Source of the DNA: Chitinophaga pinensis
GTDB taxonomy: Bacteria; Bacteroidota; Bacteroidia; Chitinophagales; Chitinophagaceae
Assembly (NCBI GenBank): GCA_943371705.1
Contig: CALRVV010000004.1
Coordinates: 157,858-221,857 of the forward strand
Length of the DNA: 64,000 nt
Direction: 5' to 3'
Shown here: piece after piece, positions 2 to 60,540 of the stretch
Position numbering within the stretch: the first letter of the stretch is position 1
How the letters are laid out: each line of letters begins with the position of its first letter
The notes under the pieces: generated by a model
Database searches by the model: none
Told to the model about the DNA's origin: nothing
Seen by the model: only the letters and a program-made list of their open reading frames with translations
Translations under genes and position numbers: made by a program

Positions 2-3000
2 GCGGTAGCCCAAACCGTTACCGATGCCAACGGATTTTATTTATTCTCTAATGTGTTACCCGGTACCTATAGTGTAGGTTTCGGCACCATTCCGGCCTCA
101 TCTGCCTTTACCACTCAAAATGCAGCCGGAAGTACGGCTGCTAATAACAGCGATGCCGATCAAACAGGACGTACAGCAACCTTTACCCTGGTTGGAGGTC
201 AGTCTAAAACAGATGTGGATGCCGGTTTGGTTTCATTAAAAGCAGCCGTAGGCGATTATGTTTGGAATGATGCAAACAACGATGGTCTGCAGGATGCCAG
301 TGAAGCAGGTGTTGCGGGTATTACCGTAACCATGTTCACTTCGGCAAATGCCACCATTGGTGATGCCGATGATGTAGCAAGAGCATCTGCAGTTACCGAT
401 GCCAACGGATATTATTTTATCAATAATGTTTCTGTAGCAGCAACAGGTTCACAGTTCTATATGCGTTTTACCGACCTGCAGTCTGCATATGACTTTACAT
501 TACCACTTGTTGGCGGAACAGGAGCTTCCAATAACAGCAAGGTAACAACGCAGCCCGTTGCCAATGGCAGAACAGGCTTCTTTACCCTTGCTCCTGGCCA
601 GGTATACCGTGATGTGGATGCAGGTATCGTAATCAATACAGCGTCTATCGGCGACCGTGTTTGGAATGATACAAACGGAAATGGTATACAGGATCCAAAT
701 GAGGTGGGTATTGCCGGTGTAACCATCGTGTTGTATAACTCGTTGGCACAACCCATTGCCACCACAACCACCGATGCATTTGGTATTTATAAATTCAGCG
801 GTTTGGCTGCTGATAATTACACTTTGAAAATCACACCTCCGTCCAATTATACCTTATCGGCCAAAACACAGGGCGGAGATACCAATACAGACAGCGATTT
901 CGATCCAATAACTTATACAACAGCAACAGTAACCCTGGCAGCCGGACAAAACCGCACCGATATTGATGCCGGCCTTAAATTTACTCAATCACAGCCGGCC
1001 AGTGTGGGCGACCGTGTATGGCTGGATAACAATGGTGATGGTATACAGGATGCCGGAGAACCAGGCGTATCCAATGTGCTGGTTACCTTATACAATGGTA
1101 CAGGTACACCTGTACGTTATACATACACTGATGTAAATGGTTATTACCTGTTTACTGATGTAACACCAGGTTCTTATACAGTAGGTGTAAGCTTACCTCC
1201 AGCGTTTGTATTTACTGCAAACAATGGTGCTGTAAGCAATACAACCAACAGTGATATTATTCCTGCCACCGGCAGAACTGCTTCATTTACCGTAAATGCG
1301 GGCGACCAGATCAGGTATGTGGATGCCGGTTTAAAACAACAGCAAACAACCAATGGCAGTATAGGAGATTTTGTGTGGAATGACCTGAACCAGGATGGCC
1401 AGCAGGATTCCGGTGAACCGGGTATTGCAGATGTGGCCGTACGTTTAATAAATGCTGTAACCAATGCAGTTGTGGCAACCACCGCAACCGATGTTACCGG
1501 TAAATATATTTTCAATGATGTACTTGCCGGTAATTACCTGGTGGAATTTGTAACACCGGCCGGATATACCACTACCAGCAAACTGAATAATAATGTAGAA
1601 GCTTCTGCAACGGACAGTGATGTAGATCCTGCTACTTCAAAAACAGCATCATTCATCCTGGCAGCCGGCCAGCGCATCACAGCAGTGGATGCCGGTTACT
1701 GGCAAACCAGTGGTGGAACAAGTATGATCGGCGACCGTGTATGGCTTGATGCCAACCAAAACGGTATTCAGGATATTGGTGAAAAAGATGTACCCGGAAT
1801 AACAGTGGTTTTATATGACGGAACCAATACAGCCATCAAACAAACAGTAACCGATGCTTCAGGCAATTACCTGTTCACCAACCTGGCAGCCGGTAATTAC
1901 ACCGTTGGTTTCAGCAATATACCAGCTGGCTATACATTCACAACCCAGGGTTTGGGCACAGCAGCAACTGGCAGTGATGCTAACCCGGCAACAGGCCGTA
2001 CAGCAACCATTACTTTAGCTGCGGCACAAACCAACCTGGATGTGGATGCCGGTATCCGCTCTGCAATGGCGGGTACAGCTTCAATAGGAAACAGGGTATG
2101 GAATGATTTAAATAATAATGGATTACAGGATGCAAATGAACCGGGAATAGCGGGTGTAACTGCAGAATTGCTGGATGCCAATGGCAACCCGATCGACAGC
2201 GATCCGGTAACAGCAGGAATACAGCCTACCACACGTTTAACCAATGCACTGGGCGAGTACCTGTTTACAGGCCTTGCAGCTGGCGATTACAAAGTCCGCT
2301 TTGGTACTTTACCTGCTGGCTTTAATGCTTCACCAAAAGCAGCAGGAACCAACAGGGATATCGACAGTGATGGAAATGCAATAGCAGCCGGAACTTCAAC
2401 AACTGATATGGTTAGTGTGGCTGCAGGCGAAGAGCGTTTGGATATAGACCTTGGTTTACATAATCCAACTGCACCTTCCGGCCAGATAGGCGATTATGTT
2501 TGGTTTGATTCCAATAACAATGGTGTTCAGGATGCAACAGAACAGGGTGTGCCCGGAGTATCAGTTTCCTTACTGAATGCTTCTAATAACGTACTGGCAA
2601 CCACCGTAACTGATGCAAACGGAAACTATCTTTTTGCAAACCTGGCTGATGCCACTTATGCTGTAAGGTTCAGCAATTTGCCTGCAGGTTTTGTTTTCTC
2701 ACCAAAAGACCAGGGAGGTAATGACAATCTGGATAGTGATGCAGATCCTGCAACCGGCCAAACCGGAACGTATACCATTACTGCCGGAAATACCAATCTT
2801 ACTGTAGATGCCGGTATTTACTCAACCAGGGCAGCACTGGGCGACTATGTATGGTTTGATGCAGACAATGACGGTACACAGGATGCAACCGAGAAAGGTA
2901 TTGCGGGTGTAACGGTAACACTATACGATGCAAATAATACAGCTGTTACTTCAACAGTAACAGATCAAAACGGAAGATATTTCTTCAGTAACCTGGATCC

Positions 3001-3967
3001 CGCTACCTACACCGTAGGATTTGGTACCATACCAACCCAACTGGTATTTACCATAAAGGATGCAGTTGTTGCCGGAGACCTTGCTGACAGTGATGTAGAT
3101 CCTGCAACAGGTAAAACCGGGCCGGTAACCCTAACTGCCGGCCAGGTTAACCTTAGTGTGGATGCCGGTTTAAGACCATTTGTACCGGCTTCAATTGGTG
3201 ATTTTGTTTGGTATGATCTGGACAGGGATGGTATACAGGATCCGAATGAACCGGGTGTACCGGGTATTGTAGCAACACTTTACAATGCTGCTAACCAGGT
3301 GATCGGTTCTGCAATAACTGATGGCAACGGGTTCTACCAGATCAGCAATGTACCTGCGGGCACCGATTACTATGTGTTATTCAGCAACAAGCCTGATCCT
3401 GCTGCACCATGGACATTACAAAATGTTGGCGGAGCCGGAGCTAATAATAACAGCAAGGCGGATGCTACCGGAAAAACCGGTTCATTCAATGTTGCAGAAG
3501 GACAAAATATCACCAATATAGATGCCGGTTTATACAGGCTCATCAGTTTAAGCGGAAATGTTTGGCACGATGCCAATGGTATGGATGATAACCTGGTAAA
3601 CAAAACAAGTACAACGCCTATTCCGGTTGGATTAAGGGTATACCTCGTTAATTTCAGTAACGGAGCCATCATTGAAGGTGTAAGGGGTATTTCATCATTT
3701 ACCGGAACTTATTTATTCCAGAACGTGAATGTGAACACCAATTACAGGATCTATTTGACCAACCAGGCATTTAATGTTGGAACGGTATTCCCTAATTCCG
3801 GCTTTAACACACTGCCGGGAACCTGGACCAATACCGGTGAAAAACTGGGTATTACACCGGGCAGCGACGGAATTGCCAATGGCTGGTTAAATGTGACTGT
3901 TGGTGTATCCAGTGTGGTGAATGCCAATTTTGGAATAAAAGAAGGCGGTGGCGGTGGCCAGCAATAA
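2..3967 (+). CDS. Giant SdrD B-like (Cna-B) repeat surface protein, 5'-truncated by window edge
   Basis: Frame is open from base 2 (AVAQTVTDANGFYLF...). Nine complete GD.VW.D.N.DG.QD..E.G repeats plus a partial first and a divergent last domain; ends GGGGGQQ with no T9SS CTD. Confidence 0.9.
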   Translation, partial: AVAQTVTDANGFYLFSNVLPGTYSVGFGTIPASSAFTTQNAAGSTAANNSDADQTGRTATFTLVGGQSKTDVDAGLVSLKAAVGDYVWNDANNDGLQDASEAGVAGITVTMFTSANATIGDADDVARASAVTDANGYYFINNVSVAATGSQFYMRFTDLQSAYDFTLPLVGGTGASNNSKVTTQPVANGRTGFFTLAPGQVYRDVDAGIVINTASIGDRVWNDTNGNGIQDPNEVGIAGVTIVLYNSLAQPIATTTTDAFGIYKFSGLAADNYTLKITPPSNYTLSAKTQGGDTNTDSDFDPITYTTATVTLAAGQNRTDIDAGLKFTQSQPASVGDRVWLDNNGDGIQDAGEPGVSNVLVTLYNGTGTPVRYTYTDVNGYYLFTDVTPGSYTVGVSLPPAFVFTANNGAVSNTTNSDIIPATGRTASFTVNAGDQIRYVDAGLKQQQTTNGSIGDFVWNDLNQDGQQDSGEPGIADVAVRLINAVTNAVVATTATDVTGKYIFNDVLAGNYLVEFVTPAGYTTTSKLNNNVEASATDSDVDPATSKTASFILAAGQRITAVDAGYWQTSGGTSMIGDRVWLDANQNGIQDIGEKDVPGITVVLYDGTNTAIKQTVTDASGNYLFTNLAAGNYTVGFSNIPAGYTFTTQGLGTAATGSDANPATGRTATITLAAAQTNLDVDAGIRSAMAGTASIGNRVWNDLNNNGLQDANEPGIAGVTAELLDANGNPIDSDPVTAGIQPTTRLTNALGEYLFTGLAAGDYKVRFGTLPAGFNASPKAAGTNRDIDSDGNAIAAGTSTTDMVSVAAGEERLDIDLGLHNPTAPSGQIGDYVWFDSNNNGVQDATEQGVPGVSVSLLNASNNVLATTVTDANGNYLFANLADATYAVRFSNLPAGFVFSPKDQGGNDNLDSDADPATGQTGTYTITAGNTNLTVDAGIYSTRAALGDYVWFDADNDGTQDATEKGIAGVTVTLYDANNTAVTSTVTDQNGRYFFSNLDPATYTVGFGTIPTQLVFTIKDAVVAGDLADSDVDPATGKTGPVTLTAGQVNLSVDAGLRPFVPASIGDFVWYDLDRDGIQDPNEPGVPGIVATLYNAANQVIGSAITDGNGFYQISNVPAGTDYYVLFSNKPDPAAPWTLQNVGGAGANNNSKADATGKTGSFNVAEGQNITNIDAGLYRLISLSGNVWHDANGMDDNLVNKTSTTPIPVGLRVYLVNFSNGAIIEGVRGISSFTGTYLFQNVNVNTNYRIYLTNQAFNVGTVFPNSGFNTLPGTWTNTGEKLGITPGSDGIANGWLNVTVGVSSVVNANFGIKEGGGGGQQ

Positions 3968-24533: not shown

Positions 24534-25400
24534 ATGAAATCAGGTTTTGTAAACATATTTGGTAAGCCCAATGCAGGTAAAAGCACTTTGCTCAATGCGC
24601 TCATGGGCGAGAAGATGGCCATTGTATCGCACAAAGTGCAAACAACCCGGCATCGCATTAAAGCCATTTTAACCGAAAAAGATTACCAGATCATATTTTC
24701 TGATACGCCGGGCATCATTGAACCCAAATACAAACTGCACGAAAAAATGATGGATGCTGTCAGAGGCAGCCTGGAAGATGCAGATGTGGCTTTGCTGATA
24801 ACCGATGTACGGGAGAATACAGAAGAGAGCCATGCCATTTTCAGTTCGCTGCGGCTTAAGGCCCCGGCCATAGTTATTTTAAATAAAGCCGATACCGTTA
24901 ATGGGGAGCAGTTGAAAACAACCGCTGCTTTTTTTGAGGCACAGCCTTATTGCAAACAGGTGGTTTCCATATCGGCCTTGAAAAAAACAGGCATTGACGA
25001 ACTGTTAAAGGCCATTCTTACCTTTTTGCCCGAAGGTGCACCTTTTTATGAGGGCGATGACCTGAGTGATTTGCCCACAAAATTTTTTGTAAGTGAGATC
25101 ATCCGCGAAAAAATATTTTTATTGTACGGGGAAGAGATACCGTATCATGCAACCGTTTTGGTACAGGAGTTTAAAGAAAAGGCAAGTCTTACCAAAATAA
25201 GCGCCGAGATCATTGTGCAGCGTGAAACACAAAAGGGCATTATACTGGGCGGCGGTGGCAGCATGATCAAAAAACTGGGCACCGATGCCAGAAAGGATAT
25301 TGAAACATTTTTAGGCCGGAAAGTATTTTTGGAATTGTTTGTAAAAGTGCGGCCAAAGTGGCGGGATAATGAGTTTCAGTTGAAGGAGTATGGGTATTAA
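24534..25400 (+). CDS. era: GTPase Era
   Basis: GKPNAGKSTL, QTTR, DTPG, NKAD, KH domain EEIPY...IILGGGG. Confidence 0.96.
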   Translation: MKSGFVNIFGKPNAGKSTLLNALMGEKMAIVSHKVQTTRHRIKAILTEKDYQIIFSDTPGIIEPKYKLHEKMMDAVRGSLEDADVALLITDVRENTEESHAIFSSLRLKAPAIVILNKADTVNGEQLKTTAAFFEAQPYCKQVVSISALKKTGIDELLKAILTFLPEGAPFYEGDDLSDLPTKFFVSEIIREKIFLLYGEEIPYHATVLVQEFKEKASLTKISAEIIVQRETQKGIILGGGGSMIKKLGTDARKDIETFLGRKVFLELFVKVRPKWRDNEFQLKEYGY

Positions 25401-25570
25401 AAACCCCCTCCGCCCCCTGAAGGGGGAACCTGGAGTCTTAAATTAAAGACAGTATTTATTTACACTTAGGTACAATAAATGCTTAGATAAAAGTTTGATA
25501 TTTTTAATTTTTTAAAAAACTCTTAAAGGATCAGGGATCAAGTTCCCCCTTTAGGGGGCGGAGGGGGTTT
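25401..25570. mobile_element. Gene-less cassette bounded by DUF559-type inverted arms
   Basis: Left arm 25401-25432 and right arm 25539-25570 are 32-bp inverted repeats (2 mismatches) around about 105 bp of AT-rich non-coding DNA; arms match those at 60056 and 60510. Mobility is inferred. Confidence 0.65.
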
Positions 25571-25572
25571 TT

Positions 25573-26889
25573 ATGAGTTTCACAGTAGCAATAACAGGCA
25601 GGCCCAATGTGGGCAAAAGTACATTCTTTAACCGTTTGCTGGAGCAGCGTAAAGCCATTGTTGATGATATCAGCGGGGTTACCCGCGACCGGCAGTATGG
25701 CGTGGCCGAATGGGCTGGAAAATCCTTTAACGTAATTGATACCGGTGGCTTTGTGGCCGGCAGCAATGATGTGTTTGAAAAAGAAATACGCAAACAGGTG
25801 GTGATTGCCATTGAAGAAGCCAATGCCATTATTTTTATGGTAGATGCGGCAACCGGCATTACCGAACTGGATAACAGCATGGTTGATCTGTTGCGCAGAA
25901 GCAAGAAGCCGGTCTTTTTAGTGGTTAATAAAGTAGACAATCATGAACGGCTGATGGAAGCCAGTGAGTTTTATGCGCTCGGTTTCGAAAATATATTTTT
26001 TGTCTCCTCCATCAGCGGCAGCGGCACCGGCGAAATACTGGATGCCCTTACTGAAAAGATAAGCGAAAAGGATTCGGATGAAGCAGCAGCAGAAACAGAC
26101 CTGCCAAAAATTTCCATCATTGGCCAGCCCAATGTGGGCAAATCATCTTTACTGAATGCGCTGATCGGGCAGGAGCGCACCATTGTAAGTGATATTGCCG
26201 GTACCACCAGGGATACCATTCATACACACTACAATCTTTTTAACAAGGAGTTCATGCTCATTGATACGGCAGGCATCAGGCGCAAGACCAAAGTGCATGA
26301 AGACCTGGAGTTTTATTCGGTGATACGTGCCATTAAAGCGGTGGATGAATCGGATATATGCATGCTGATGCTGGATGCCGGCAAAGGCATTACTGCCCAG
26401 GACCTTTCTATTTTTTCGCTGGCCGTAAAAAAAGGAAAAGGTATTGTGGTGCTTGTTAACAAGTGGGACCTGGTGGATGAAAAGAAAACCAACACCACCA
26501 AAGATTATGAAAAGGAATTAAAGAAAAAATTTGCCCCTTTCAGTGATGTACCCATTATCTTTATTTCGGTTACCGAGAAGCAACGCATATTTAAAAGTAT
26601 TGAAATGGCGCTGGAAGTATTTGAGAACCGCAAGCGAAGAATACCCACCTCACAGCTGAATGAAGTGATGCAGAAAGTGATTGAGGCATACCGGCCACCG
26701 GTGGTTAGGGGCAACCAGTTAAAAATAAAGTATGTGACCCAGTTGCCTACCTTTACACCCAGCTTTGCATTTTTCTGCAATTATCCCGATGATGTAAAAA
26801 CACCTTATAAAAATTACCTGGAGAACCAGTTGCGTGAAAACTTTAATTTTACGGGTGTGCCGGTGAGGTTGTTTTTCAGGAAGAAATAG
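25573..26889 (+). CDS. der: Ribosome biogenesis GTPase Der (EngA)
   Basis: Two GTPase domains GRPNVGKST and GQPNVGKSS, DTGG/DTAG, C-terminal KH-like domain. Confidence 0.96.
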   Translation: MSFTVAITGRPNVGKSTFFNRLLEQRKAIVDDISGVTRDRQYGVAEWAGKSFNVIDTGGFVAGSNDVFEKEIRKQVVIAIEEANAIIFMVDAATGITELDNSMVDLLRRSKKPVFLVVNKVDNHERLMEASEFYALGFENIFFVSSISGSGTGEILDALTEKISEKDSDEAAAETDLPKISIIGQPNVGKSSLLNALIGQERTIVSDIAGTTRDTIHTHYNLFNKEFMLIDTAGIRRKTKVHEDLEFYSVIRAIKAVDESDICMLMLDAGKGITAQDLSIFSLAVKKGKGIVVLVNKWDLVDEKKTNTTKDYEKELKKKFAPFSDVPIIFISVTEKQRIFKSIEMALEVFENRKRRIPTSQLNEVMQKVIEAYRPPVVRGNQLKIKYVTQLPTFTPSFAFFCNYPDDVKTPYKNYLENQLRENFNFTGVPVRLFFRKK

Positions 26890-26952
26890 TTTTTAGTTCT
26901 TAGTTCTTAGTTTTTAGTTTTTAGTTCTTAGTTTTTAGTTTTTAGTTTTTAG
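26890..26952 (+). repeat. Heptamer tandem array, 9x TTYTTAG
   Basis: Starts on the base after the der TAG, in phase with it. Confidence 0.9.
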
Positions 26953-26999
26953 TTTGTGGACTGTCGTCTTTTACATTATAAAATCAAAAAATAAAGTAA

Positions 27000-35900: not shown

Positions 35901-35929
35901 ATTGCGGTTATGTACAATTTGCAGCACCT

Positions 35930-36037
35930 TATACCGACCATACATAATAAATAGTCAGGCAGTTTTTATGTCGGCATAATACCATCTAATATTTCAACGC
36001 AGTCCGTTGGACTACTTATGAAATAAAGATGGGATTA
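35930..36037. repeat. 108-bp double-hairpin dispersed element, copy A
   Basis: Aligns with 42617-42724 (inverted) and 58130-58250; contains AGTCC-gtt-GGACT. Confidence 0.85.
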
Positions 36038-36397
36038 ACCAGCTATATATTTTTTGATAACGATAAAAGCTATGATCATCAATAAAAGCAGGGTGACTAT
36101 GGTGATATACAGCCAGGGCTGGTCTTTCAGTTTTCGTTTTTCTTTTTTTGGTTTCTTTTTTTCTGTTTGTTTTTTCAGTTCACTGTTCAGTTGCTGTACC
36201 AGCAGGGAAAGGTCTTTTTTATTTTTAAAATTTTCCAGTCCTTCTATGGCATCGTTCATAAACTCATCATCGGCCATCTGCTTTTCCACTTCGTGGGCTT
36301 CTTCGGCAGTCAGGTTCTTATTCAGATAGTCAAGCAGTTTATCCTGCTCAATATCTTTGTTTAAATTAGATAGTATGTCTTTTAAATTGTCACTCAT
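36035..36397 (-). CDS. Short single-pass membrane protein, putative anti-sigma factor
   Basis: LLDYL...EVEK...DAIEGL N-terminus, basic stretch, C-terminal TM helix; directly downstream of an ECF sigma gene. Confidence 0.65.
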   Translation of the reverse strand: MSDNLKDILSNLNKDIEQDKLLDYLNKNLTAEEAHEVEKQMADDEFMNDAIEGLENFKNKKDLSLLVQQLNSELKKQTEKKKPKKEKRKLKDQPWLYITIVTLLLLMIIAFIVIKKYIAG

Positions 36398-36480: not shown

Positions 36481-36515
36481 GCAATTGCTTATTGCCAATT
36501 GTCTATTGCTCATTG
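36481..36515. repeat. Heptamer tandem array, 5x NNNATTG
   Basis: GCAATTG CTTATTG CCAATTG TCTATTG CTCATTG, overlapping the sigma factor stop codon. Confidence 0.65.
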
Positions 36516-37078
36516 CCATTGCTCATTCGTTCCATGATTATTTTCAAATTACGTTTTCCATTTTGTATATGGCTTTTTACATGCATGATACTATAGCTGG
36601 TTTGCTCGGCAATTTCCTGGTAGCTTTTTTTCTCCAGGTAAAACAAAGTTACACATAGTTGCTGCTCTTTGTTGAGTTGCATCAGTGCCCCGGCCAGGTT
36701 ATCGAGTGTTTTATCTTTTTGAATATGCTGGCCGCTGCCGTCGGGTTCTGCCGGGGTACTCAGCGCCTGCTCATTGATCTCTGCATTAAACCTGCCTTTA
36801 TCACGCAATTGCATCAGGCAGTGATTTTTTGCGATCATGTATATCCAGCTTTTAAAATATTCCACTTTGTATTTATGCAGTTCATTAATGGCTTTCAGAA
36901 AAACCTGTTGAACGGCATCTTTTGATGCTTCTTCATTTTTCAGGTATTTCATGCAAACACCCAGCAGCAGCATGGTATAGCGTTCCAGTAAAATACCCAG
37001 CCACTCATTATCGTGGTCTGCATAAAACCGGTTCAGCAGTTCTGTATCGCTGGTATGCCTGTATTGACTGTTGTTCAA
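36503..37078 (-). CDS. ECF RNA polymerase sigma-70 factor
   Basis: DAVQQVFLK, FKSWIYMIAKNHCL (region 2); SYQEIAE...VKSHIQNGKRNL (region 4); TTG start. Confidence 0.92.
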   Translation of the reverse strand: MNNSQYRHTSDTELLNRFYADHDNEWLGILLERYTMLLLGVCMKYLKNEEASKDAVQQVFLKAINELHKYKVEYFKSWIYMIAKNHCLMQLRDKGRFNAEINEQALSTPAEPDGSGQHIQKDKTLDNLAGALMQLNKEQQLCVTLFYLEKKSYQEIAEQTSYSIMHVKSHIQNGKRNLKIIMERMSNGNEQ

Positions 37079-41943: not shown

Positions 41944-42540
41944 TCAGTTTTCAGTATTTTTTTTCTTTTGCATCGAGTCCAGTGCCTGTACCCCTTTCCG
42001 GATCAGCATTTTAAGGGTGTCGGGATCTATTTTCTGCAGTTTTTCAAGCCCGTCCTTTAAATCTCCTTTACGGGCACCCATATTTCCCTTCATGCTGTTG
42101 AACATTTGATTTCCGGGTTTGGAGAGGGCTATTTTCCAGGCGTTGTCTTCTTTTACCAGTTCAAATTTTTGCTTGCTCATCTTTTCCCCGTTTTGGGCGG
42201 CCGTATCCTTTATGGTGATCTCGGCTTCTACGGTGGCGTGGTCGCCATCGATGGTTTCGTTTTTTATATCAAACTCAATATGTTTCGCATTTTCTTTTAA
42301 TTCCTCGGTGAGCCTGGTCTTTATTTTATTTATGCCTTCGGGGTCAATGCCTGCCATGAATTTTTCTGCAGCTTCCAGCATGGCCACATCCGATTTGGTC
42401 ACGAATTTTTTCATTTCTTCAATATTGCCCTTCTTCATGGCAGTAAACATATCTTCCAGTACAACAGCAGGCGGATTGGCCGGTTGTTTGCAGGCAGCAA
42501 GGCAAAAGAGTACACATAAAGCGGCAATTGATCTTTTCAT
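41944..42540 (-). CDS. DUF4878 lipoprotein, paralog
   Basis: Lipobox LAAC; ETIDGDHATV; LVKEDNAWKI; C-terminus similar to the 41315 gene (DKGIQAMDSL / RKGVQALDSM). Confidence 0.8.
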   Translation of the reverse strand: MKRSIAALCVLFCLAACKQPANPPAVVLEDMFTAMKKGNIEEMKKFVTKSDVAMLEAAEKFMAGIDPEGINKIKTRLTEELKENAKHIEFDIKNETIDGDHATVEAEITIKDTAAQNGEKMSKQKFELVKEDNAWKIALSKPGNQMFNSMKGNMGARKGDLKDGLEKLQKIDPDTLKMLIRKGVQALDSMQKKKNTEN

Positions 42541-42616
42541 ATCATGGTATTTTACCGGTAAAAATAATTTTATTTATCTGCAACCGGTTATTTTTTACCT
42601 GTTTTGTTACAGCCGG

Positions 42617-42724
42617 TAATACCATCTTGATTTATGAAATAGTCCAACGGACTATGAGGAAATCTTAGATGATATTATGCCGATAGAAAATTGATTGGAC
42701 TATTTATTATGCTACATCGGTATA
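42617..42724. repeat. 108-bp double-hairpin dispersed element, copy B (inverted)
   Basis: Reverse complement aligns end to end with copy A, same length. Confidence 0.85.
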
Positions 42725-42731
42725 GCACCAT

Positions 42732-42758
42732 AAAAAAGAGGCAGTTGTAAACTGCCTC
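42732..42758 (-). terminator. phoH terminator
   Basis: Minus strand GAGGCAGT-ttaca-ACTGCCTC then TTTTTT. Confidence 0.8.
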
Positions 42759-42785
42759 CGGTATATAGATACAAGGTTAGCGTAC

Positions 42786-43802
42786 TTAAGGTTGTGGTGT
42801 TCTTTTGGATTCGCCGGTTTTATGGTCTATTGATTTTGCCTCGGTGGCTTTTACATCATCTTTATTGTATGCTTTGATGATCTGTTTAACCAAACGGTGC
42901 CTCACCACATCTTCTTCATTCAGTTCAATATGCGATATGCCTTCAATATTTTTTAAAATACGGGCAGCTTTAAACAAACCGCTTTGCTGGTTTTTGGGCA
43001 GGTCGATCTGTGTAGGATCGCCGGTAATGATGGCTTTTGCATTGGGGCCTATACGGGTCAGGAACATTTTTATCTGCAGGTCGTTTGTATTCTGAGCCTC
43101 ATCCAGTATGATGAATGCATTGTCGAGTGTACGGCCACGCATGTAAGCCAATGGTGCTATTTCAATGGTACGGGTACTCATATAATAGCCCAGTTTATCG
43201 GCTGGTATCATATCATCCAGTGCATCATATAAGGGGCGCAGGTAGGGGTCAATTTTTTCTTTCAGGTCGCCGGGCAAAAATCCCAGGCTTTCACCGGCCT
43301 CTACCGCCGGCCTGGTTAAAATTATTTTTTTAACCGATTTGTTTTTTAATGCCCTTACTGCCAAAGCCACGGCAGTATAGGTCTTTCCGGTACCTGCGGG
43401 GCCAATGGCGAAAAGGATGTCATTTTTATCGCAGGCTTCCACCATTTTTTTCTGGTTGGCCGTACGGGCCCTTACTGTTTTTCCATTGGGCCCGAATACC
43501 AACACATCATTGGGGTTCCGGTCTATAAAATTATCAACCACCCGTTCATCATCACCACCAAGGATCTGTTCAAAATAATTGGCACTCATGTGGCCGTTTC
43601 GTTCAAGATAACTGAGAATAAGATCGATCTTTTCCCTGGCGCCTTCAATTTGTTCGGGGGCTCCGCTTAATTTTATCTGCGTGCCGCGACTAAGGATTTT
43701 TAAAAGGGGAAATTTCTTTTTGAGGATGTCTAACTTACCGTTGTTTACGCCAAAAAATTCGATAGGGTTTACGGTTTCGAGATTAATGATCGTTTCTGTC
43801 AA
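42786..43802 (-). CDS. phoH: PhoH family protein
   Basis: [48 protein letters not shown]. Confidence 0.93.
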
Positions 43803-51245: not shown

Positions 51246-51326
51246 TGTCAGCCTGTACCGATAGCTATCGGGATGTAGAAGCCGGGTTCGTTCCTGTACA
51301 CCGGTTTCGACAAGCTCAACCTGACA
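51246..51326. repeat. REP-like inverted-arm element (TTCGACAAGCTCA type) carrying an inserted 18-bp palindrome
   Basis: Right arm GGTTTCGACAAGCTCAACCTGACA; left arm TGTCAGCCTG[TACCGATAGCTATCGGGA]TGTAGAAGCC. Confidence 0.75.
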
Positions 51327-53959: not shown

Positions 53960-53994
53960 TATAATAATGCGCTTTATATGATCTTAATCCCCAA

Positions 53995-54022
53995 CTAAAA
54001 ACTAAAAACTCAGAACTCAAAA
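53995..54022 (-). repeat. Heptamer tandem array, 4x TTYTKAG
   Basis: Minus strand TTTTGAG TTCTGAG TTTTTAG TTTTTAG, 3 nt after the stop at 54026. Confidence 0.75.
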
Positions 54023-54025
54023 CAA

Positions 54026-54652
54026 TTACAATCCTCCTGATTCCGATTTTTTCATTCGCTTGATCGTGCATCCTACACTCTTGCTTTCTTTAACAGAAAT
54101 TTCTTTTCCGCCAGCCATTTCATTAATGGCCTCCTGCAGGTGAACCCGTGTAATGGCAGCAGCATCAGCGGGGCTGTTGTCTATGGCGCCATGATAAACC
54201 AGTTTTAAATTCTTGTCAAACAAAAAACATTCGGGTGTGCGGTTGGCACCAAATGCATCGGCCACTTCGTGGTACTTATCAACCACATAATTCCATTGGT
54301 ATCCCTGGACTTTGGCATAAGCCTGCATGGCATTAAAACTGTCATCTTTTCTACGTAAAGCCTCATTGCTGTTTAAAATAATTACGCCTACATCATTAGC
54401 TGTTGCAAATTTACTGATGGCTATTGTGCGTTCCTGGTTCTTGATCACATACGGACAGGTATTGCAACTAAACATGACCAATACGCCATTTGCCCTTGCT
54501 GCATCTTTCATGGCCACTTCCTTTCCGGAAATGTCCTTCATTTTACGATCGGATTTGGGCATGGTGCTGCCAACCGGAAGCGGGTCGACGGTGGTAAAAG
54601 CAAGTATTGCTAAACACGCAATCGCAATAAAACTAAAAAGTACCTTTTTCAT
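54026..54652 (-). CDS. Exported thioredoxin/redoxin family protein
   Basis: Signal peptide; VMFSCNTCPYV, FGANRTPECFLFD, YHGAIDN, SVGCTIK. Confidence 0.88.
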   Translation of the reverse strand: MKKVLFSFIAIACLAILAFTTVDPLPVGSTMPKSDRKMKDISGKEVAMKDAARANGVLVMFSCNTCPYVIKNQERTIAISKFATANDVGVIILNSNEALRRKDDSFNAMQAYAKVQGYQWNYVVDKYHEVADAFGANRTPECFLFDKNLKLVYHGAIDNSPADAAAITRVHLQEAINEMAGGKEISVKESKSVGCTIKRMKKSESGGL

Positions 54653-57319: not shown

Positions 57320-58114
57320 TTATGCTTTAAGGTTTTCTAATTTGGCTGCAAAGTAAGTGCTTTTAGCAGGATTGAGCAAACTTAATTTTTGGTACACTTC
57401 TATGGCTTTGGCTATTTTGCCCTGCCTGGCAAATACTTCGGCCATAGATTCGGTAAGTACTTCCGTATCATTATTGCTGTTTTCGGCCAGTATTTGAACT
57501 TTTGTATCTGTTTTTGCAGTGTTTTCGGCATCATTTTCCACATGGATCTTTTTCATGGTCTTAAGCCATTCTGTAAAACTCTTAAGCTGTTTGCCCAGTT
57601 TGTCGGCGGTTTGGGCCTCTTCGGTTAATTTTATGCCCTGCGATGCAAAATAGTCAACCATGTGCATGGGTTCAAAAAGCATGGCTTCGGCAGCAAGGTT
57701 TGCTTTTTGTGATGGCATTTTCAATTCGATATGCATGGGCTCAATTTCTGTTTCCTGCCCGCTTCCATCGCCGGCCGGTAATTCTGTATTGTCTGGCTGG
57801 TCATCTGCCATTAAGGTTTCTGGCGCAGGCATCCTATTTCGAGGTGCATCAACAGCGGGCTCATCCGCAGTAATGGCCTTACTTGTTTGGTTGAGCTGAA
57901 AATTAAGCCAGTGCGGGTTATTGAAAAAGAGGTTTGTTTTTACGGCCTGTTTTTCAAATGCAGTGGTATCTTCTTGTATACTATGCAGCAGAAAAAAATG
58001 TGCCGGCGAAAAGCTGGGATGCTTTGCGGTGATCTCTTTTAAAAAATCAACATGGCCTGCATCAGTAAAGCTCCTGTTAAATAATGATTCAAATATTTTT
58101 GTATGGTGCTGCAT
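57320..58114 (-). CDS. Conserved hypothetical protein (TPR-like C-terminus) upstream of secG
   Basis: VLTESMAEVFARQGKIAKAIEVYQKLSLLNPAKSTYFA. Confidence 0.8.
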   Translation of the reverse strand: MQHHTKIFESLFNRSFTDAGHVDFLKEITAKHPSFSPAHFFLLHSIQEDTTAFEKQAVKTNLFFNNPHWLNFQLNQTSKAITADEPAVDAPRNRMPAPETLMADDQPDNTELPAGDGSGQETEIEPMHIELKMPSQKANLAAEAMLFEPMHMVDYFASQGIKLTEEAQTADKLGKQLKSFTEWLKTMKKIHVENDAENTAKTDTKVQILAENSNNDTEVLTESMAEVFARQGKIAKAIEVYQKLSLLNPAKSTYFAAKLENLKA

Positions 58115-58129
58115 GGTGCAAATCTACAT

Positions 58130-58250
58130 TATACCGACTATACATTATAAATACTCCTGCGGTTTTTATGTCGGCATCCCGATAGCTATCGGAACAATCT
58201 GATATTTCAATCCAGTCCATCGGATTGCTTATGAAATAAAGTTGGTATTA
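58130..58250. repeat. Double-hairpin dispersed element, copy C, with inserted 18-bp palindrome (121 bp)
   Basis: Aligns with copy A except TCCCGATAGCTATCGGAA (58177-58194) in place of TAATA. Confidence 0.85.
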
Positions 58251-58850
58251 CCAGTTAGAAAATATCTTATTAAAAATAGCATCGGTCAGGTTCCTGGAAA
58301 TTTCATCCCCTTTTGATTGTTCAACCTGGCTCAGGCTTAGGTTGGCATCAAAATCAATGCTGTACGTTACATCGGCTTCAAAGTTCTTTTTCTCGTCGAG
58401 TGTATTTTTAAAAATAAGATGAAAATTGGCCGTTAACCGGTTAAGGCTGGTATTGGTGCCGCTGATACCGGTAGTACTGGTAAAGTATCCCGATACATAG
58501 CCGCTGATATCGTAATGGGCGTCATCATCATTGCTTTGGCGCAGCCGGGTGGTACCAATGATCTTTTGCTTCAGTTTTTCGGTAAGCTGCGGGCTCAGCT
58601 GCGGGTTCTTGTATTCGGCCCGGTTCTCAAAATAATTAACCCTGAAGGTTTTTACTTCGGGTGGTAAACCGCCGATATCTTTAAAGCCGTATTTGCAGGT
58701 AGCAAAGTTGAAGGTAACAAGTAGCAGCAGGCATATAGCAAATAGCTTGTTGCGGCTGATTGTAGATTTTAGATTGCCGATTTTAGATTGTTGGGTGCTA
58801 ACAGCTAACAGCTCATAGCTCAAAGCTTTCCCACTATTCTTCAATATCAT
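58248..58850 (-). CDS. lptE: LptE family LPS assembly lipoprotein
   Basis: Lipobox-like FATC-KYGFK, TFRVNYFENRA, position in the miaB-secG operon; exact start uncertain. Confidence 0.75.
   Translation of the reverse strand: MILKNSGKALSYELLAVSTQQSKIGNLKSTISRNKLFAICLLLLVTFNFATCKYGFKDIGGLPPEVKTFRVNYFENRAEYKNPQLSPQLTEKLKQKIIGTTRLRQSNDDDAHYDISGYVSGYFTSTTGISGTNTSLNRLTANFHLIFKNTLDEKKNFEADVTYSIDFDANLSLSQVEQSKGDEISRNLTDAIFNKIFSNW
58760..58824. repeat. Two adjacent heptamer arrays (4x TTTTAGA-like; 4x GCTMAYA-like)
   Basis: TTGTAGA TTTTAGA TTGCCGA TTTTAGA (58760-58787) and GCTAACA GCTAACA GCTCATA GCTCAAA (58797-58824). Confidence 0.75.
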
Positions 58851-60051: not shown

Positions 60052-60055
60052 AATA

Positions 60056-60540
60056 AAACCCCCTCCGCCCCCTGAAGGGGGAACTTTGGAGTATGATTAT
60101 TTTAAGTGGTTTTCAATTATTTGTAAAACTGATTCTAATTCGTTTGTAATTTCTTTTGTTGTAAACCTGATGACTTTTAATCCCAAAACCTCTAATTCTT
60201 TTTGCCTTAATTCATCTTTAATTTTTATTTCTTCCAGATCATGAATACTTCCATCAATTTCAATAACCAGTTTTTTAGAATGACAATACATGTCAACAAT
60301 ATAAAATGAAATTGGATGTTGCCTTCTGAATTTTATATCAGGAAAATATTCTTTCAATTTACCCCATAAAATCATTTCAGTTGGTGTAACATTATTTCTC
60401 AACTTCTTTGCCTTTTCAAAAATCAAATGCCCGGCTCCATAAAACATATTTTCTTTCATAATCAACCCGACTTCTGAAATAAATAAATGCTGTTAAAATC
60501 TTCCGGCCCCAAGTTCCCCCTTTAGGGGGCGGAGGGGGTT
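60056..60540. mobile_element. DUF559 nuclease cassette bounded by hairpin inverted arms
   Basis: Arms 60056-60084 and 60510-60540 are inverted repeats identical to the era-der arms; the enclosed gene is visibly AT-richer than its neighbours. Mobility is inferred. Confidence 0.7.
60097..60459 (-). CDS. DUF559 / Vsr-like endonuclease domain protein
   Basis: AKKLRNNVTPTEMILW, FRRQHPISFYIVDMYC, LVIEIDGSIH, GLKVIRF; ATG 60459 or TTG 60465. Confidence 0.9.
   Translation of the reverse strand: MKENMFYGAGHLIFEKAKKLRNNVTPTEMILWGKLKEYFPDIKFRRQHPISFYIVDMYCHSKKLVIEIDGSIHDLEEIKIKDELRQKELEVLGLKVIRFTTKEITNELESVLQIIENHLK

Follow-up and report, generated by a model that had tools for sequence, protein, structure and literature searches.

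The double-hairpin repeats that occur in three copies within the window (the entire 64-kb stretch of DNA analysed here, 64,000 nucleotides) are probably best explained as a non-autonomous mobile element of about 109 nt that has spread through the Chitinophagaceae. The initial annotation had proposed either an ncRNA or 3'-UTR motif, or a non-autonomous element mobilised by an HUH/Y1 transposase. The element is mobile DNA and not primarily an RNA gene, as judged from its sharp ends, the triplet repeated at its flanks and the empty sites found in near-identical strains; moreover, one copy lies inside a gene. These properties, and with them the presence or absence of copies at strain level, outweigh the RNA motif as the primary identity of the repeat. 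That the element has been mobile recently, is non-autonomous and uses a polar TAA target is very likely.

A covariance model of the family (R1), scored at every position of the window, recovered exactly three copies (Table 1), which can be aligned end to end. The other R1 matches in the window were reverse-strand echoes of the palindromic hairpin 2, or noise. The three copies were therefore as first described, the second of them inverted, and their coordinates stood except at the left boundary, where the true edge lies one base further to the left because of the conserved T ahead of TATACC. Throughout, the strand whose flanking triplets read TAA is called E'; on the strand used in the initial annotation they show TTA.

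On its E' strand copy A reads 5'-TAA-TCCCATCT...GGTCGGTA-TAA-3', with a central TAA common to hairpins 1 and 2, and the ORF that it abuts is located downstream of an ECF sigma gene (36503-37078). Copy B is flanked by a PhoH-like gene (42786-43802, - strand), which has a terminator at about 42727-42760, and by a DUF4878 gene (41944-42540, - strand). It is antisense to both neighbours and touches no real stop codon. An ORF of 166 codons on the + strand (42119-42619) does end on the TAA of copy B; as it has no Pfam match and overlaps the DUF4878 gene, which has one, on the opposite strand, it is probably a spurious shadow ORF. Copy C occupies the short spacer of a co-directional gene pair. The stop of the LptE-like gene (58248-58850) is the copy C triplet 58248-58250, and the second gene of the pair (ORF 57320-58114) starts 14 nt past the other end of the copy. 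The identity of the terminal TAA with the stop codon of the adjacent gene, noted at the outset for copies A and C, is thus borne out for both.

Copy C is longer than copies A and B because of an extra palindrome, CCCGATAGCTATCGG, between its hairpins; the palindrome, CCCGATAGCTATCGG(G), measures about 13-18 nt. In related strains copy C is found without it, 13 nt being skipped at 58179-58196 with loose ends AATACCATCTAATATT. The same palindrome occurs again at window positions 51248-51275, and at the same hairpin junction in locus L050 (about 1360-1380) and in metagenome contigs. A small third hairpin, variable in sequence and not present in every copy, is placed exactly at the module junction in copy C and in loci L050, L021, L063 and L074.

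Table 1. Positions of the element copies, their parts and a sister family. Positions are those of the window unless a locus (L) is named; E' marks the strand with TAA as its flanking triplets.
Feature	Position	Strand	Description
Copy A	35929..36037	- (E')	109 nt; covariance model match on + strand, 109.7 bits
Copy A core	35932-36034		103 nt, flanked by TTA 35929-35931 and TTA 36035-36037
Copy A hairpin 1 (module 1)	35929..35979	-	TTATACCGAC...GTCGGCATAA, 10-bp stem
Copy A hairpin 2 (module 2)	35977..36037	-	TAATACCATCT..TATTTC..AGTCCgttGGACT..GAAATA.AGATGGGATTA
Copy A right-hand triplet	36035..36037	-	TAA, native stop of 120-aa ORF 36035-36397
Copy B	42617..42725	+ (E')	109 nt; covariance model match on - strand, 107.4 bits
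Copy C	58129..58250	- (E')	about 121-122 nt; covariance model match on + strand, 68.5 bits
Secondary insert in copy C	58177..58194	.	palindrome CCCGATAGCTATCGG, stands instead of AATA where the two hairpins meet
Ferruginibacter sister family	L003 892-1023; L069 1189-1339; L044 about 1807-1895; L060 1-90		

Other repeats are also present in the window. A GC-rich inverted-repeat family (AAAACCCCCTCCGCCCCCTGAAGGGGGAACTT), unrelated to the element, forms two arm pairs at 25398-25432, 25539-25573, 60055-60089 and 60508-60540. Tandem heptamer arrays (TAGTTTT/TAGTTCT) at 26887-26969 and 53993-54027 are mutually inverted, and at 163-3265 a very long repeat-protein gene contains at least nine repeats of about 357-400 nt (families D1-D3).

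The family unit is about 109 nt in length, comprises a 103-nt core between two identical triplets, and contains no ORF. The collection of further copies, suggested in the initial annotation, yielded at least about 150 of them in Chitinophagaceae metagenome-derived genomes (Hanamia, Ferruginibacter and unnamed genera) and in metagenome contigs. A first scan, in which a pattern over the conserved blocks of both hairpins was applied to species-representative genomes, returned at least 80 loci; among the 80 matches listed, 77 are real copies and three are chance matches in unrelated GC-rich genomes. Nearly all of the copies among the matches listed came from Chitinophagaceae genomes derived from metagenomes, and at least 27 loci belonged to one Hanamia genome. 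A second scan, anchored on the outer stem of hairpin 2 alone, gave 88 metagenome loci with 81 matches to the model, and in these hairpin 1 was almost always found ahead of hairpin 2. Five loci from the second scan (L089, L092, L150, L158 and L162) have only the 11-nt arms in common and were taken as chance matches or unrelated sequences. Both scans demanded exact conserved blocks, and some stem positions are consequently fixed by ascertainment.

Similarity between the copies stops sharply at both ends, between T and TATACC on the left (T in 66/69 full copies) and after GGTATTA on the right, and the length is 108-109 nt in most of the 69 full copies. The outer inverted repeat, TTATACC/TAATACC, is 7 nt long with one mismatch, or 4 nt long if the triplet is counted as target. 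Many copies are located at contig ends, as is expected of a repeat that breaks assemblies. In the source sample the summed contig depth was ~430 over hairpin 2 versus ~23 in the flanks, which suggests, as a rough guide, that this sample holds of the order of 10-20 copies. No copy was present in viral contigs, phage records or plasmid records. A search of Rfam 15, as had been proposed, gave no match on the element at the gathering threshold, and hits with E up to 10 were microRNA-type noise; no described RNA family was therefore matched at either level. No description of the family was found in the literature searched; an automated census of Bacteroidota MITEs (PMC11602168) has been published and may include it.

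A second family was found in one Ferruginibacter genome, in which the same ends enclose a different and longer interior (132-150 nt; Table 1). Its termini are TTATACCGAT..., ...ATCGGCATAA and ...GGTATTA. As the sister family keeps the ends and changes the interior, this comparison of sequences points to the ends as the part of the element that may be recognised.

Empty sites, which the initial annotation had proposed to seek in relatives, were observed with a single triplet for copy A, for copy C and for a copy elsewhere in the family. The empty allele of copy A is carried by contigs of three other sediment-metagenome runs, the flanks of which are 98-99% identical to the window. In these contigs position 35928 is joined to 36035, 106 nt are skipped and three letters fit either side, so that the site reads ...GCAGCACC-TTA-ACCAGC... 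with a single TTA; GCT GGT TAA is preserved. The site of copy B is occupied in related strains. Copy C is present in the main related strain, and in one more distant strain ...ATCTAC is directly joined to ATTACCAG, again with a single TTA (loose end at 58247). The third case is a copy in L135, inserted at an out-of-frame TAA inside a RAYT-like Y1 transposase gene (631-1207). The intact form of this gene, encoding a 100% identical protein of 156 aa (P0001), was found on contig L169 (480-950) from another metagenome, where the empty site reads AAAA-TAA-AAGC with a single TAA. Across species, the proteins encoded by a filled locus (L052) and by its ortholog without a copy (L015) stop at the same residue (..KKM-stop versus ..KKI-stop). 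A filled site is thus TAA-core-TAA and an empty site one TAA, an arrangement in which a duplicated target and a single target next to a triplet at the element end are indistinguishable.

When 126 non-redundant sites were compared, the 5' triplet on E' was TAA in 122 and the 3' triplet was TAA in 111; the inverted arrangement was not seen among these sites. A flank preference was evident solely 5' of the site, comprising A at -3, A/T at -2 and G/A at -1 (A-W-R; 0.27, 0.16 and 0.25 bits, respectively), with at most 0.06 bits in the 3' flank. This one-sided preference was still there once the stop-codon cases had been removed. Together, the fixed polarity and the one-sided preference favour strand-specific recognition, since a symmetric staggered cut would give both polarities. 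Pairing of the central TTA and its neighbours with the A-W-R flank was also considered and, by inspection, gave no fit beyond the triplet itself.

The TAA closes an ORF of at least 80 codons in 25 of the 126 sites (~20%), as against one or two in control frames. Such targets are the native stop of a gene that converges on the element (as seen on the strand used in the initial annotation), and both the stop and the length of the protein are preserved, which leaves the protein unchanged. The gene upstream of E' is co-directional with it in 47/60 cases, a bias due in part to the stop-codon insertions, and copies antisense to both neighbours make up 9/60, copy B among them. Where copies are neighbours in one locus, they were in opposite orientation in 5 of 6-7 pairs, which is a small sample.

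Each unit folds into two hairpins, the cores of which are TTATACCGAY...RTCGGCATAA and TAATACCATCT...AGATGGTATTA. The feet of the hairpins are the ends of the element; both start T(T/A)AT(A/G)CC, and the central complementary triplet (TAA) is able to close either of them. In the first alignment 91% of cells were paired and double changes were present in six pairs; in the second alignment, which was anchored outside most stems, nine pairs displayed double changes (for example A-U/G-C, 32/17). Both the paired cells and the covariation score lay above all 500 shuffles and all slid controls, although the counts derive from related copies and the second alignment was fitted to the model, such that independence is overstated. 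The alignments thereby upheld the earlier proposal that the structure is under selection. The two compensatory changes on which that proposal had been based are genuine and recur across the family. The closing pair of hairpin 1 is U-A in 41 sequences and C-G in 13, and the variable pair of hairpin 2 is G-C or U-A in 45 and 13 sequences of set 1, and in 36 and 24 sequences of set 2.

Hairpin 1 of copy A contains one A.C mismatch on the + strand, which is equivalent to a G.T/G.U wobble on the - strand. The A.C mismatch is invariant in set 1, where it was imposed by the pattern of the first scan; in set 2 the position alternates between C and T (GGCA or GGTA), giving G.T or A-T on E'. Across the family, A.C cells exceed G.T cells on the strand opposite E'. 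E' was the more stable strand in 60/62 copies with RNA parameters and in 53/62 copies with DNA parameters, and the mean MFE was -35.6 kcal/mol for the sense strand versus -29.0 kcal/mol for the opposite strand. With RNA parameters, copy C belongs to the two copies that depart from the greater stability of E', and copy B is nearly equal on both strands.

The loop of hairpin 1 carries a hexamer, TAGTCC, that recurs in hairpin 2 as the 5' arm of its inner stem (35952-35957 and 36000-36013 in copy A). This identity is family-wide; in one subfamily the loop reads TAGACC and the 3' arm GGTCTA, but the 5' arm AGCCC. The repetition of the hexamer may reflect long-range pairing or a protein site that is present twice.

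In the proposed mechanism, the element would be moved in trans by a strand-specific, hairpin-recognising enzyme of the IS200/IS605 or HUH 'peel-and-paste' type. Alternatively, the mover might be another recombinase that pairs a 3-nt core, as opposed to a symmetric DDE cut-and-paste enzyme. Insertion takes place at 5'-TAA-3' with constant polarity, and a gene keeps its stop whenever the target is its stop codon. What suggests this class of enzyme is the polarity and the one-sided preference, combined with hairpins that are conserved and terminal inverted repeats that are almost lacking. If the element is taken as mobile with a polar TAA target, a single-strand, HUH-like mechanism is plausible at slightly less than an even chance, and a DDE mechanism is, on the same premise, unlikely. 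The HUH/Y1 transposase of the initial annotation is accordingly only a candidate: the fixed polarity and one-sided preference favour a strand-specific mechanism, but neither a tnpA nor a RAYT gene bounded by these ends turned up in the loci.

A further possibility, which we regard with some scepticism, is an undescribed single-strand system in which the central TTA would pair with TAA on the exposed sense strand. The enzyme would then be either one that is new to Bacteroidota repeats or the product of a RAYT-like gene with a second substrate. If this were true, the TTA-TAA pairing would account for both the homing to stop codons and the rebuilding of the stop.

The observed target has also to be weighed against a classic MITE, mobilised by a DDE transposase of the IS5/IS1031 or PIF/Harbinger type with a 3-bp TTA/TAA duplication, in which the hairpins would have arisen secondarily from internal inverted repeats. 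IS5-related and PIF/Harbinger elements duplicate TNA/TTA triplets, and the 3-nt direct repeat in the empty and filled alleles, together with the short terminal inverted repeats TACC...GGTA, is as such a MITE would have it. However, the asymmetric triplet is constant in polarity (122/126), when a symmetric staggered cut should yield both orientations; the flank preference is confined to one side; the outer inverted repeat amounts to merely 4-7 nt; covariation is seen in the stem pairs, and the two strands fold unequally well; and no IS with these ends was found in the loci. We therefore consider a DDE-mobilised MITE quite unlikely. The polarity, the one-sided flank, the 4-7-nt outer repeats and the at least nine covarying pairs fit better with a strand-specific mechanism that recognises the hairpins.

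In the loci, which total ~1.1 Mb, no gene had these ends on its flanks and no transposase recurred. Nor was a parent IS with the family ends (TTATACCGA... / ...GATGGTATTA) recovered when orphan end motifs and recurrent ORFs near the copies were examined, and the ORFs that recur beside copies encode housekeeping proteins only. A 505-aa ORF between two copies in L129 was set aside, as it encodes a T9SS-sorted protein and not a transposase. When all six-frame ORFs from the window and the loci were searched with an HMM built from 120 RAYT homologs, only three Y1-type genes emerged: one in L135, which the element interrupts, one in L153, and a truncated one in L022.

These three RAYT genes are each within 0-650 nt of a copy, and RAYT-like Y1 genes are common in the Chitinophagaceae (2478 homologs, many of them named RayT). 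The repeats are, in addition, hairpin-forming, multi-copy and intergenic, all of which would agree with a REP/REPIN-type repeat maintained by one of the single-copy RAYT genes of these genomes. That explanation is nevertheless improbable. Every RAYT gene examined has its own GC-rich palindromes, unlike the element, in its flanks (L169 1-480; L170 3110-3230; L153 92-108 and 694-712), the covariance model finds no copy beside the intact RAYT loci L169-L175, and one RAYT gene (L135) is itself disrupted by the element. To our knowledge, sharp ends, a repeated flanking triplet and a 5'-TAA target have not been reported for REPs. The search for copies flanking tnpA or RAYT genes, suggested at the outset, accordingly found none in the loci examined, the nearby RAYT genes being flanked by other palindromes, and the element is not the cognate REP of the RAYT genes seen.

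As a separate observation on these genes, the one found in L169 and L135 is preceded by a GC-rich palindromic repeat, GCGGTCTGACGCTAAGGCGTGCTGACCGC, in three copies, which are presumably its own REPs. Other RAYT-like genes of the Chitinophagaceae occupy fixed chromosomal contexts (GSHPx-RAYT-Dus), and the short GC-rich repeats that flank RAYT genes differ between RAYT subfamilies.

The covarying stems, the best folding being that of the sense-strand RNA, and the orientation of E' along the upstream gene in most cases could also be those of a structured RNA, either a 3'-UTR stabiliser or a small RNA, that has spread by duplication and whose DNA features are secondary. One unstranded metatranscriptome contig contains 91 nt of a copy and 118 nt of flank, and is compatible with read-through from the neighbouring gene. 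Set against this, no family in Rfam matches, and neither a promoter nor a T-tailed terminator is present within the element. Some copies are antisense to both neighbours and one is inside a coding region, and the sharp ends, the repeated triplet and the strain-level presence or absence are properties of a DNA insertion. The RNA evidence amounts to that one contig, which carries no strand information. A structured RNA as the primary identity is thus improbable as well. A role as intrinsic terminator was ruled out, as neither hairpin is followed by a T-run. Stabilising 3'-UTR hairpins have been proposed for REP, ERIC and Correia repeats, and by analogy an RNA structure in the 3'-UTR, or an effect on mRNA 3' ends, is plausible as a by-product of the mobile element. 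An integron attC-like site was excluded because the ends are not RYYYAAC/GTTRRRY.

The element is a well-defined and recently active mobile repeat from a bacterial family whose intergenic repeats have barely been described, and its ends, target, empty sites and covariance model are now established. In practical terms, it breaks assemblies, can mislead gene callers at 3' ends, and is a possible strain marker in lake and sediment metagenomes.

Among known systems, PIF/Harbinger-Tourist and IS5-group elements have the same flanking direct-repeat triplet (3-bp TTA/TAA). They are characterised, however, by a symmetric cut, by insertion in both polarities and by inverted repeats of at least 10 nt that match a DDE transposon, and neither such polarity nor such repeats were seen here. 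The bacterial MITEs of transcribed spacers (Correia/NEMIS, ERIC and RUP) have been reviewed (PMC3184786, PMC10969869). Like the element, they are ~100-150 nt long and gene-less, are present in numerous near-identical copies within a genome, fold into stable hairpins, have a short duplicated A/T target, often touch or run over the ends of genes, and occupy sites in some strains that are empty in others. They differ in having long terminal inverted repeats and a duplication of TA or longer without fixed polarity, whereas the element has an outer repeat of 4-7 nt, a polar triplet and covarying internal stems. Of the traits of a classic MITE, the element is small, non-coding and multi-copy and has both filled and empty sites; it lacks the terminal inverted repeats of at least ~10-15 bp shared with a parent IS and the unpolarised duplication.

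REP, BIME and REPIN sequences are likewise abundant intergenic hairpin repeats, often located just beyond gene ends, with a hairpin-recognising HUH enzyme as the presumed driver, and RAYT genes are present in the same genomes as the element. A REP unit is an imperfect palindrome of 20-40 nt with a conserved 5' tetranucleotide and no defined ends. The element, in contrast, ends sharply, is bracketed by a repeated TAA and has precise empty sites; it is AT-rich and is made up of two different hairpins with a fixed length of 108-109 nt in most copies.

With the IS200/IS605 family and PATEs (for which IS608 and ISDra2 serve as models) the element has in common the lack of long terminal inverted repeats; it also resembles them in its hairpin at each end, in what appears to be insertion in a fixed orientation by a short specific sequence with one copy retained in the empty site, and in a structurally favoured strand. 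IS200/IS605 elements use T/A-rich targets such as TTAC or TTTAA(C), and the classic members have an orientation bias with respect to the replication strand. The target of the element is only 3 nt long, preceded by a weak A-W-R, and its hairpins are terminal and share the central triplet, whereas those of IS608 and ISDra2 are subterminal. No Y1 tnpA or tnpB with the ends of the element was present in the loci examined. Furthermore, copies that are neighbours do not as a rule point the same way (opposite in 5 of 6-7 pairs, a small sample), which argues against a replication-strand bias of the IS200/IS605 kind.

Overall, the element is a real and recently active non-autonomous hairpin repeat. The combination of a polar TAA, neutrality at stop codons, near-absent terminal inverted repeats and covarying hairpins places it outside the usual pictures of MITEs and REPs, and provides a concrete handle toward the enzyme responsible.
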